Of a stretch of 64,000 nt of DNA, positions 21,065 through 52,184 are shown one piece after another (the stretch's first letter is position 1; every line of letters begins with the position of its first letter). This stretch comes from Candidatus Poribacteria bacterium. Its GTDB lineage: Bacteria > Poribacteria > WGA-4E > WGA-3G. Made by a program: the position numbers and the translations under genes. Where the stretch lies: contig OZ243938.1 in assembly GCA_965214095.1 (NCBI GenBank), positions 2,464,001-2,528,000 of the forward strand. The letters are read 5' to 3'. Below the pieces are notes generated by a model. The model was not told the DNA's origin. It worked only from the letters and a program-made list of their open reading frames with translations, and did no database searches.

Positions 21065-21260
21065 TGTAGTAAAAACCATAATTATTTACACACGACGGTA
21101 GGTTCGGTTTCCTAACCGAACCTTATGCGTCAATTTAGCGTCCTTCCAAGTGCCGGTAGGTTCGGTTTCCTAACCGAACCGGTGTTTGTTCAGTATCATA
21201 GATGCGGTTAGGAAACCGCATCTACCGAGGAGTGTGCACCTATTTTTGCATTTCACTATA
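21065..21260. mobile_element. composite REP-containing MITE-like element, copy 1
   Basis: Ends TGTAGTAAAAACC...ATTTCACTATA; two direct GTAGGTTCGGTTTCCTAACCGAACC hairpins plus one inverted copy; homologous to 49038-49266. Confidence 0.75.
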
Positions 21261-31835: not shown

Positions 31836-32066
31836 CTTTTTTCTCCTTTAGAACATATACAGACTCTTTATTCCTGTTTCGGTTCGTTAGACATAAGTTA
31901 CAAATGGAATAAGCAACAAAACCCATAAGGAAGTGAACATGTCTTTGGGTAATATTCTATTTGATGCACTACTTTTCGTCAATAAGTAGGTGTAAATGTG
32001 TAAATGCAGGGTTAGTTTTAAGTATTTTCCAAAATAGAGATTTACTAAAAGTTAATACCCAAGCCG

Positions 32067-32090
32067 GTAGGTGCGGTTTCCTAACCGCAC
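32067..32090 (+). repeat. REP hairpin / left target copy
   Basis: GTAG-GTGCGGTTTCCTAACCGCAC; the 20-mer recurs at 33579-33598 and an inverted partner lies at about 33674-33693. Confidence 0.85.
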
Positions 32091-33578
32091 CATAGGCGTC
32101 AATTTAAGGATGCACCAAGACCGATAAGTGTCAACTTTTAATCAGAGGAAGTATAAATTATGAAATAAAACTTCTGTAAAAATGAAAACACCTCATATAT
32201 AATGTAGATATAGATTTATTATGGTCTACAAAGAGGTGTTTCCTAATGAATACATTATCACAAGTTCCCAAAGAAATGCAACATATTCTTACAACTATAG
32301 CCAATGATGCAGCTCTCAATACAGGTTTTGTCAAAAGAAGTTGTAAACTCAACGGTAGTCGTTTTGCTCAAATACTCATTTGGACTTGGTTAGAAAACCC
32401 AGATGCCACCTATACACAACTTGCGCAAACCGCTGGTGTGCTGGGGATTTCAATCTCACGACAAGCCATTGAACAACGATTTACATCTGAAGCAGCAGAG
32501 ACCCTGAAAGTTATCCTTGATGCTACTGCGTCCAAGGTTATTTCTGCCGACCCGCAAACGCTTCCGCTCCTTGAAAAGTTCACTGGTGTCTATTTACAAG
32601 ATAGTTCTTGGATTACACTCCCTGATGTGCTCCACGAAACTTGGGAAGGTGGAAGCAAAAAGAATAAACCGAACACAGCTGCCGTGAAACTCCACCTGCG
32701 TTTTGATAGTGCCACAGGCACTTTTGAACACTTTGAACTGACCAATGGTATCACCGCTGATAGTGCTATTGAAAAGCAGATTGACATGCTACCCGCCGGC
32801 AGTTTGCGCCTCGCAGACCTCGGCTATTATTCACTTGATACCTTCAAAAGACTTTCCGATGCAAACGTCTTTTGGATATCACGCTACAAAGTCCAGTGTT
32901 TTCTCTATGATGAAACAGGTGACCCTTTTTGTTTGCTAAAATGGCTCAAGAAGGGTTCTAATAACTTCAAGGACAAACAAATCTTTATAGGTAAAAACAA
33001 GCGTCTCAAAGCACGATTAGTTGTTCAAAGACTTTCAGAAACAGAAACCCAACAGCGTATTAAGGAGATAAAACATCGTGCAAAGCGGAAGTATACGAAA
33101 CCTTCACCAAAACGACTTCAGCTCGCAAGATGGAATATCTACATTACTAATATAAAAGTAGACCATCTGACTGCTGAACAGATTTGTGCTGTCGCACGCA
33201 TCCGATGGCAGGTTGAGTTGATGTTCAAGTGCTTCAAAAGCATTGGAAAAGTTGATACCTCCCGTAGCGACAAGCCATATAGAATCTTATGTGAGTTATA
33301 TGCAAAACTCATCGTCGCAATTATGCGGCACTGGATCATGTTAAGGGTCGGTTGGCGATGTCTAAAACATAGTCTAACAAAAACAGCAGAACTTATTAGC
33401 ACCTTCGCACGCACACTTGCAATAGGTTTCCGCAAGTCTATAATGTCTTTTCGGCAAACTTTTGATGAAATAAAACACGCTTTCCAAAATGGGTGCTACA
33501 TTGAGAGACGTGCTAATAGAGACACAACATTAGAACACCTTGAAAATGCAGCAAAAAATCACTAAATTGACGCCTATG
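32091..33578 (+). mobile_element. IS4-family insertion sequence
   Basis: Perfect 16-bp TIRs CATAGGCGTCAATTTA (32091-32106) and TAAATTGACGCCTATG (33563-33578); flanked by a direct 20-bp repeat. Confidence 0.92.
32246..33565 (+). CDS. IS4-family DDE transposase
   Basis: LQDSS (D1), LADLGYYS (D2), ARIRWQVELMFKCFKS (YREK-like motif with E); stop codon lies within the right TIR. Confidence 0.92.
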   Translation: MNTLSQVPKEMQHILTTIANDAALNTGFVKRSCKLNGSRFAQILIWTWLENPDATYTQLAQTAGVLGISISRQAIEQRFTSEAAETLKVILDATASKVISADPQTLPLLEKFTGVYLQDSSWITLPDVLHETWEGGSKKNKPNTAAVKLHLRFDSATGTFEHFELTNGITADSAIEKQIDMLPAGSLRLADLGYYSLDTFKRLSDANVFWISRYKVQCFLYDETGDPFCLLKWLKKGSNNFKDKQIFIGKNKRLKARLVVQRLSETETQQRIKEIKHRAKRKYTKPSPKRLQLARWNIYITNIKVDHLTAEQICAVARIRWQVELMFKCFKSIGKVDTSRSDKPYRILCELYAKLIVAIMRHWIMLRVGWRCLKHSLTKTAELISTFARTLAIGFRKSIMSFRQTFDEIKHAFQNGCYIERRANRDTTLEHLENAAKNH

Positions 33579-33763
33579 GTGCGGTTTCCTAACCGCACCG
33601 GAACCCACAAGAAAACTGACTATGAAAGGTTTTATCACAAAGTCGCCAGAATATGCGTGTGGTATTTTGCATTGGTTAGGAAACCGCACCTACCAGCTTG
33701 AGGCATTTAGCATTTGTGAAAAAATACAAGAAAAACCGAAAACTAAATAACCCCCTCTGCATA

Positions 33764-49037: not shown

Positions 49038-49266
49038 TATGGTCAAAACCATAATTATTTACACACTACGGTAGGTTCGGTTTCCTAACCGAACCATGGG
49101 CGTCAATTTAGTGTAAATTAGGCGTTTTCCCCAGGACGGTAGGTTCGGTTTCCTAACCGAACCGGATCCTACGCGAGAACCTCTATGAAGGTATTTGGCA
49201 CAAAGACGGTTCGGTTAGGAAACCGCATCTACCGGGAGTGTGCACGGATTTTTACATTTCACTATA
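49038..49266. mobile_element. composite REP-containing MITE-like element, copy 2
   Basis: Shares AAAACCATAATTATTTACACAC, two direct plus one inverted REP, GTGTGCAC and ATTTCACTATA with 21065-21260. Confidence 0.75.
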
Positions 49267-52069: not shown

Positions 52070-52184
52070 ATGAAGATTAATTTATTAAACGGGTAATTCT
52101 CATTTACCCAAACCCGGTAGGTGCGGTTTCCTAACCGCACTGGACTTCTCAAGGAAATTACCTGATTTATTTCTTAATCTTCAT
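52070..52184. mobile_element. MITE with ATGAAGATTAA ends carrying a REP, inserted into the loop of another REP
   Basis: ~29-bp imperfect TIRs; internal GTAGGTGCGGTTTCCTAACCGCAC; flanks GTAGCACAAACTTT and TCAGTTTGTGTC. Confidence 0.72.

Follow-up and report, generated by a model that had tools for sequence, protein, structure and literature searches.

In a 64,000-nucleotide stretch of the genome of a Candidatus Poribacteria bacterium (assembly GCA_965214095.1, contig OZ243938.1, positions 2,464,001 to 2,528,000; hereafter the window), an insertion sequence (IS) of 1488 bp lies between two identical copies of a complete 20-bp repetitive extragenic palindromic (REP) hairpin. The explanation that we regard as best, and as probably correct taken as a whole, is that this IS belongs to a Tn5-fold, IS231-related lineage that makes staggered target cuts two helical turns apart, chooses its sites by short half-sites, and regenerates the REP into which it inserts. 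The long duplication belongs to the transposase lineage and not to a cruciform, because non-palindromic sites, sister genomes, and more distant relatives in Herpetosiphon and Chlorohelix all give duplications of 17-21 bp.

The locus comprises the following features, given in window coordinates.

32067-32070, + strand: GTAG, the REP leader; the genome-wide consensus is CGGTAG followed by the hairpin (551 copies)
32071-32090, + strand: target duplication, left copy, GTGCGGTTTCCTAACCGCAC, a complete REP hairpin (8-bp stem, 4-nt loop)
32091-33578, + strand: the 1488-bp insertion sequence, of which the genome holds 13 copies (identity 98.3-100%)
32091-32106, + strand: left terminal inverted repeat, CATAGGCGTCAATTTA, which fits the end signature of the IS231 subgroup, CAT-------AA--TAA
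32246-33565, + strand: transposase gene, a single open reading frame (ORF) of 439 amino acids
33563-33578, - strand: right terminal inverted repeat, reading TAAATTGACGCCTATG on the + strand
33579-33598, + strand: target duplication, right copy, a second complete REP hairpin in the same orientation, followed by CG
33670-33694, - strand: degenerate inverted partner REP of the host repeat unit (GGTTAGGAAACCGCAC then CTACC), also present in paralogous units

The terminal inverted repeat of the element is perfect (16/16), and the hairpins on its two sides are identical and similarly oriented, as an earlier note on this DNA had described. With up to three mismatches allowed, the 20-mer of this locus occurs nine times in the window, compared to 0.01 occurrences expected. 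The IS sits within a repeat unit of ~235 bp (window 32012-32070 and 33599-33753) that consists of a REP and a degenerate inverted partner, resembling a REP doublet forming hairpin (REPIN) or a bacterial interspersed mosaic element (BIME), and several copies of this unit are 84-98% similar. We sought an orthologous empty site: in two sister genomes, G093 and G080, the flanking genes are syntenic, yet the DNA between them shows neither conservation nor a REP doublet, so paralogous units were used as empty sites instead. In all three of these (C1:274981-275214, 1022908-1023143, and 4923148-4923378) a lone 20-bp hairpin sits between the same left and right flanks, and the REP at window 52121-52140 is an ordinary single copy; the expectation that removal of the IS restores one normal REP was thus borne out.

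Thirteen full copies of the element were found on the 5.2-Mb contig, and an exact 20-bp direct repeat flanks every one of them (13/13). Ten are in REP hairpins, all in exact register, with both GTG and GTT stem variants represented and orientations divided 9 versus 1; REPs are therefore a strongly preferred target, in agreement with the earlier note. The other three copies are in unrelated non-palindromic sites (GGTATGATTATATAACGCAC, GTGTTGATGTGCCTAGTACC, and GAGAGCATTAGCATATTCAC) that have 20-bp repeats of their own, from which it follows that the 20-mers are target DNA rather than element ends, and that the length of the duplication needs no hairpin. The element ends were read as CATAGG...CCTATG. 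Since the outer bases at the three non-REP copies differ from the terminal C and G of the element, the repeat is 20 bp; the alternative length of 22 bp, which had been offered alongside it, does not hold. Copies in paralogous repeat units represent separate events, as their flanks are far more diverged than the elements themselves.

The source genome also contains many non-autonomous elements of ~171 bp that share the ends of the IS and have an internal GGTAG-REP. We detected 48 left/right end pairs of these short elements (e.g., C1:1338912-1339083 and 5144649-5144821), of which 24 were bounded by a repeat of 19-21 bp, exact in 13 and with at most two mismatches in 11. Thirteen of these 24 were in REPs, where the repeat was always 20 bp, and 11 were in non-REP DNA, where it was 19-21 bp. 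The 24 pairs that had no 19-21-bp repeat included several that were nested or tandem.

Relatives of the transposase (E ≤ 1e-20) were present in 53 of the 176 genomes of the phylum that were searched, the source genome included, with identities of 43-90% and often in multiple copies; sister genomes are denoted here by G-numbers and the loci of relatives by L-numbers. We took 126 loci and located the element ends by a conserved motif in 120. Exact repeats flanked 76 of these 120 copies (17 bp in 6, 18 bp in 7, 19 bp in 35, and 20 bp in 28) and repeats with one mismatch flanked a further 8, so that 84 had a duplication of 17-20 bp, at hairpin and non-hairpin sites alike. The modal length was specific to the lineage: it was 20 bp in the closest relatives (G093, G091, and G100), 19 bp in many others, 18 bp in G103, and 17-18 bp in G101, G081, and G084, while the most distant relatives (G021 and G023, 43% identity) gave 19-20 bp. 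Non-REP sites of the relatives had duplications of 17-20 bp, four exact 19-bp sites in G098 being one example. No duplication of ~10 bp was found at non-palindromic sites, where the lengths were 18-21 bp. The 36 copies without a repeat comprised 22 with non-identical REPs on both sides, 10 with a REP on one side, and 4 with none. In some sister genomes the majority of copies have non-matching REPs on their two sides, as do six of the seven in G162; loci of this kind include L029 and L105-L109 (G162) and L072-L074 (G105). These mismatched flanking REPs suggest frequent inversions or deletions through recombination between copies.

Outside the phylum, the nearest annotated relatives were IS4-family genes on a plasmid of Herpetosiphon aurantiacus (34.8% identity) and on a Chlorohelix plasmid (33.8%), followed by IS231 of Bacillus (27-28%). 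All five Herpetosiphon copies had 19-bp repeats (three exact, two with one mismatch) when the element was read as CATAGG...CCTATA; these repeats were read by eye from the junctions, and counting the invariant C and A as target bases would make them 21 bp. The Chlorohelix copy had a 20-bp repeat. A second Herpetosiphon plasmid match was set aside as a truncated, divergent copy. Two Clostridium relatives (26-28% identity) were single copies, one of them with a damaged end, and a copy of IS231B examined as a control for a duplication of ~11 bp had flanks that were inverted rather than direct.

Elements that had inserted into sites of two lengths show how duplication and site are related. In 17 of 19 such events the duplication tracked the site, with L071 and L064 as the exceptions: within one element, 19-bp hairpins gave 19 bp and 20-bp hairpins gave 20 bp. 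The elements that had hit sites of two lengths were those of G173 (1470 bp), G148 (1469 bp), G105 (1451 bp), and G108. The earlier proposal that the hairpin sets the length of the duplication was therefore supported for an adjustment of one base, and it was not supported as a general account given that non-palindromic sites also yield 20 bp. Other sites separate the duplication from the hairpin. In a second REP type (type B), the stem (GTCGGGT/ACCCGAC) is 7 bp long and the loop 13 nt; the duplication there (GGTAGAGCGAAGCGAAACC) begins 4 bp inside the stem and, when folded alone, reaches only -1 to -2 kcal/mol. The 18-bp duplication of G103 is placed asymmetrically on a palindrome, and two of the Herpetosiphon duplications are offset from the local hairpin. 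The division of sites into type A, type B, and non-REP was made by regular expression and is approximate, with L097 (REP-like) and L111 (a palindrome) both classed as non-REP.

We then aligned the cut positions at 44 half-sites from 22 non-REP events. Position -1 was G in 27 of the 44, position +1 was G in 32, position +2 was G or T in 35, and position +3 was G in 26; the ends of the REPs show a matching motif on both sides (taG|GTG ... CAC|Cgg). Our conclusion is that the enzyme recognises a pair of inverted half-sites and spaces its cuts by a ruler of two turns, with a tolerance of about one base. Symmetric recognition leads to the expectation of unbiased orientation with respect to the REP, as was found in the relatives (18 forward, 20 reverse).

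The earlier identification of the element as an IS4-type DDE transposon held up at the level of the protein. The transposase matched Pfam DDE_Tnp_1 (PF01609; E 1.9e-22) and NCBIfam NF033592 transpos_IS4_1 (195.9 bits against a cut-off of 115), while the IS1634 profile gave only 29 bits against a cut-off of 100. By alignment with IS231B we assigned the catalytic residues as D119, D191, and E324; these are invariant in the alignment with relatives and IS231B, and their spacings of 72 and 133 lie within the IS4-type range D(60-110)D(100-150)E. R320, E324, and K331, the R, E, and K of the YREK signature, are invariant in the same alignment. The full pattern Y(2)R(3)E(6)K is absent, as position 317 is A; 10 of 12 aligned members of the lineage have A, V, T, or L there, and tyrosine occurs only in L035, L137, and IS231B. 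Because a phmmer search of PDB sequences returned no matches at E ≤ 1, a fold search was needed. An AlphaFold2 model built on 42 relatives had a mean predicted local distance difference test (pLDDT) score of 85.3 and a predicted template modelling (pTM) score of 0.84, and the five best Foldseek matches of this model in the PDB were all Tn5 transposase (E 2e-8 to 1e-6), led by 4dm0 and 1muh (E ~2e-8, the best 2.2e-8; TM-score ~0.45 over ~415 columns). The transposase is thus predicted to adopt the Tn5 fold, an RNase H fold with an insertion domain. There were 786 homologous proteins, and among the 120 listed none bore an IS name and three were labelled only "hypothetical protein".

These observations can be drawn together in a proposed mechanism. 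The element appears to be an intact, recently active cut-and-paste insertion sequence from a lineage distantly related to IS231. Its transposase would act as a dimer with Tn5-like chemistry on a target captured as duplex DNA, making 5'-staggered cuts separated by ~two turns of the helix, which is 20 bp in this element and 17-21 bp in the lineage as a whole. Cut positions would be set by a pair of half-sites in inverted orientation, each reading G|G(T/G)G from its cut inward, and the spacing of the pair would have about one base of play. A GTAG-type REP (...taG|GTGCGG...CCGCAC|Cgg) would offer two perfect half-sites at exactly this spacing, and REP hairpins would thereby become hot spots. Staggered cuts would land at both ends of the stem, and gap repair would copy the whole hairpin; as both REP copies stay intact, the target would be regenerated and open to further insertion. 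Repeated insertion would then produce IS-REP-IS arrays and arrays in which an IS and a MITE (miniature inverted-repeat transposable element) share a REP (IS-REP-MITE), and recombination between copies would produce hybrid flanks.

Several points weigh against this mechanism. Of 54 events at the main REP type, 53 have their cuts at the ends of the hairpin, a result that an enzyme reading structure would give as well. The half-site consensus is weak, at 60-80% per position, and it pools kin lineages that are non-independent. Use of non-palindromic sites is the only observation that points to capture of the target as duplex DNA, and a Tn5-like dimer would have to span 20 bp. The motif-based search for ends missed aberrant copies among the relatives (6 of 126). 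Lastly, 36 of the 120 copies of relatives lack a matching repeat, which may be due to recombination between copies.

The alternatives differ in what they take the enzyme to recognise. One would keep a Tn5-like lineage, in the form of an undescribed subgroup from Poribacteria-type genomes, Herpetosiphon, and Chlorohelix that joins its ends to phosphates two turns apart, and would have the ends of the stem, not a fixed ruler, set the cuts on REPs by way of an extruded hairpin or a sharply distorted duplex; if true, this would be a DDE element whose target regenerates at every insertion. We consider this combination unlikely, and we give a somewhat smaller chance to a structural contribution on REPs in itself. 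Equally doubtful is the cruciform model of the earlier note, according to which the transposase recognises the extruded REP hairpin and cuts at its base, so that the length of the hairpin sets that of the duplication. The GTGCGG-type duplication does equal the stem-loop (19-bp hairpins account for 22 events, all of 19 bp, and 20-bp hairpins for 32, all of 20 bp, with L064 as the one exception), the same element gives 19 or 20 bp according to the hairpin in G173 and G148, the hairpin is stable (-9.3 kcal/mol), and extrusion would bring sites 20 bp apart close together. Yet equal lengths occur at non-palindromic sites in 3 of the 13 IS copies and in 11 short elements, as well as in 16 events of relatives classed as non-REP (the palindrome L111 and the REP-like L097 among them). 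In addition, L071 gives 19 bp on a 20-spaced site, and the cuts inside the type-B stem, the asymmetric G103 duplication, and the offset Herpetosiphon duplications also count against the model. These results argue against cutting at the base of a cruciform as the cause of the long duplication.

A very improbable alternative is that insertion is random, without real REP targeting, and that survivors are seen only in harmless, REP-rich intergenic DNA. REPs are indeed intergenic, where insertions are tolerated, and non-REP insertions exist; however, selection cannot explain the exact register of 10 of 10 REP insertions here and of 53 of 54 for the main type overall, the non-REP sites carry the same end motif, and at least 10 of 13 insertions in exact REP register would arise with P ~1e-28 under random insertion confined to intergenic DNA (assumed to be 0.6 Mb). 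Least credible of all, and already contradicted, is that the 20-mers are part of the element as long imperfect terminal repeats that include the hairpin: the hairpin is nearly palindromic and forms with the terminal inverted repeat a 36-bp inverted repeat with four mismatches, and 22 copies of relatives have non-identical REPs on both sides, but unrelated non-REP repeats of 19-21 bp adjoin the same CATAGG...CCTATG ends in three IS copies and 11 short elements, paralogous empty sites hold one hairpin, and the flanking 20-mers vary (GTG or GTT, either loop orientation) around elements that are 98-100% identical.

We compared the element with known transposons, beginning with those of similar sequence. 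According to the part of the family survey by De Palmenaer et al. 2008 (PMC2266710) on which we draw, IS4 subgroups all have 7-13-bp duplications, and the hallmarks of the family include the YREK motif and a duplication that spans about one turn of the helix. The same part of that survey gives direct repeats of 10-12 bp and the end signature CAT-------AA--TAA for IS231, duplications of 8-9 bp for Tn5, and highly variable repeats of 8-514 bp for IS1634 and IS1549 of the IS4-related IS1634 family (PMC2266710). The element described here shares with the IS4 family its profile match, DDE spacing, single ORF without a frameshift, short terminal inverted repeats, and 5'-CA ends, but differs in its duplication, about double the usual length for the family (20 bp in 13/13, in place of 7-13 bp), and in the absence of the YREK tyrosine. 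Its nearest named relative by tblastn is IS231A/IS231B of the Bacillus cereus group (27-28% identity over ~84% of the protein), with which it has in common the end signature, a single ORF, its DDE spacing, and an R..E..K motif. It nonetheless falls outside the IS231 subgroup, given its 20-bp repeat as opposed to 10-12 bp and an identity to IS231B of only 26-28%; IS231B also has the YREK tyrosine, which the present lineage mostly lacks, and the hosts are Bacillus for IS231 and Poribacteria-type genomes and Chloroflexota here. IS231A reportedly favours a symmetric target, GGG-N5-CCC, which lies at the duplication's ends, a finding that is said to be due to Hallet et al. 1994. IS50/Tn5 transposase, the best fold match, is alike in its DDE and R-E-K signature at an identity of only 12-13%. 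IS1634 and IS1549 likewise make long duplications, whereas the length here is fixed to within one base for each element.

Other elements resemble this one in their target or in the length of their duplication. ISRm22, of the IS4 family, inserts into a REP palindrome at a fixed position, and its hybrid flanks have been ascribed to recombination between copies; ISPsy8, ISPa11, ISPpu9, ISPpu10, and IS1397 also target REPs at fixed positions, and such elements break the REP, with direct repeats that span 0-6 bp and that in ISRm22 measure 6 bp, at the axis of the palindrome, as described in the portion of Tobes and Pareja (PMC1525189) used here. In contrast, the element in the window duplicates the whole hairpin, leaves two intact REPs, and also uses non-REP sites, while the hybrid flanks of the ISRm22 type form a pattern like that of the 36 repeat-less copies of the relatives. 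Long duplications of 16-28 bp characterise the IS1202 group, and in the available portion of the source no target is identified for the group with long duplications (PMC10132070). That group has an unrelated TnsB-like transposase and TGT...ACA ends, as opposed to CAT...ATG ends and Tn5/IS4 fold and profiles here. Our literature search, in which unusually long duplications by DDE elements came up only for IS1202 and Mutator, found no paper on an IS4-type element with a ~20-bp duplication, though an ISfinder or TnPedia entry may exist.

The targeted REP family comprises 551 copies with up to three mismatches on the 5.2-Mb contig, with the consensus CGGTAG-[G/A]T[G/T]CGGTTTCCTAACCG[A/C]A[C/T]-C. 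It has the characteristics of GTAG-type REPs, namely a short imperfect palindrome after GTAG, hundreds of copies, and a stem kept by compensatory changes: the stem variants include GTTCGG..CCGAAC (264), GTGCGG..CCGCAC (82), ATGCGG..CCGCAT (70), and GAGCGG..CCGCTC (7). GGTAG is upstream of ~500 of the 551 copies, and the main hairpin folds at -9.2 to -9.3 kcal/mol with DNA parameters. Five Y1_Tnp (PF01797) matches were also detected, at C1:81623-81976, 4230081-4230434, 2385609-2385962, 2170036-2170389, and 2666075-2666299; four of them are open frames of 141 amino acids, and they may be either REP-associated tyrosine transposases (RAYTs) or ordinary IS200-type genes.

The arrangement of elements around REPs shows that duplicated REPs are used again, as 22 of the 120 copies of relatives adjoin the end of another element across the flanking repeat, and element ends lie 20 bp apart in the source genome at C1:635481/635501. 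Direct REP doublets with identical 20-bp hairpins occur at window positions 21102-21179 and 49075-49162, with spacers of 38 or 48 bp that begin with the left end of the element (CTTATGCGTCAATTT or CATGGGCGTCAATTT) and finish in GGTAG. These doublets resemble what a short element would leave behind after a deletion running from its internal REP to the duplicated REP beside it, and the element family therefore seems to seed new REP copies. At C1:2057240-2057414 there is a tandem array with a 58-bp period, made up of four repeats of a 20-bp REP and a 38-bp right-end fragment of the element. Separately, contig C2 (32,066 bp) has a G+C content of 64%, compared to 41% for the main contig, and may be foreign or mis-binned.

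The lineage is best described as a Tn5-fold, IS231-related one whose target duplication spans two turns and whose REP hot spot is regenerated by the element itself. IS families are defined by, among other traits, how long their target duplications are, a length that reflects how the strand-transfer complex is shaped; where a lineage with the Tn5 fold reliably duplicates 17-21 bp, the implied architecture of target capture is unlike that of the solved Tn5 complexes. An enzyme of the Tn5 type whose stagger is a defined 20 bp and whose target is simple and symmetric could also have practical interest. For the host genomes, the element shows that a DDE transposon can live on REPs without destroying them, as every insertion leaves one REP more and makes the hot spot anew. 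Regeneration of the REP goes some way to explain why these sponge-symbiont-type genomes have IS-REP-IS arrays, REP doublets, and frequent hybrid flanks, and the hybrid flanks in turn point to rearrangements in such genomes.

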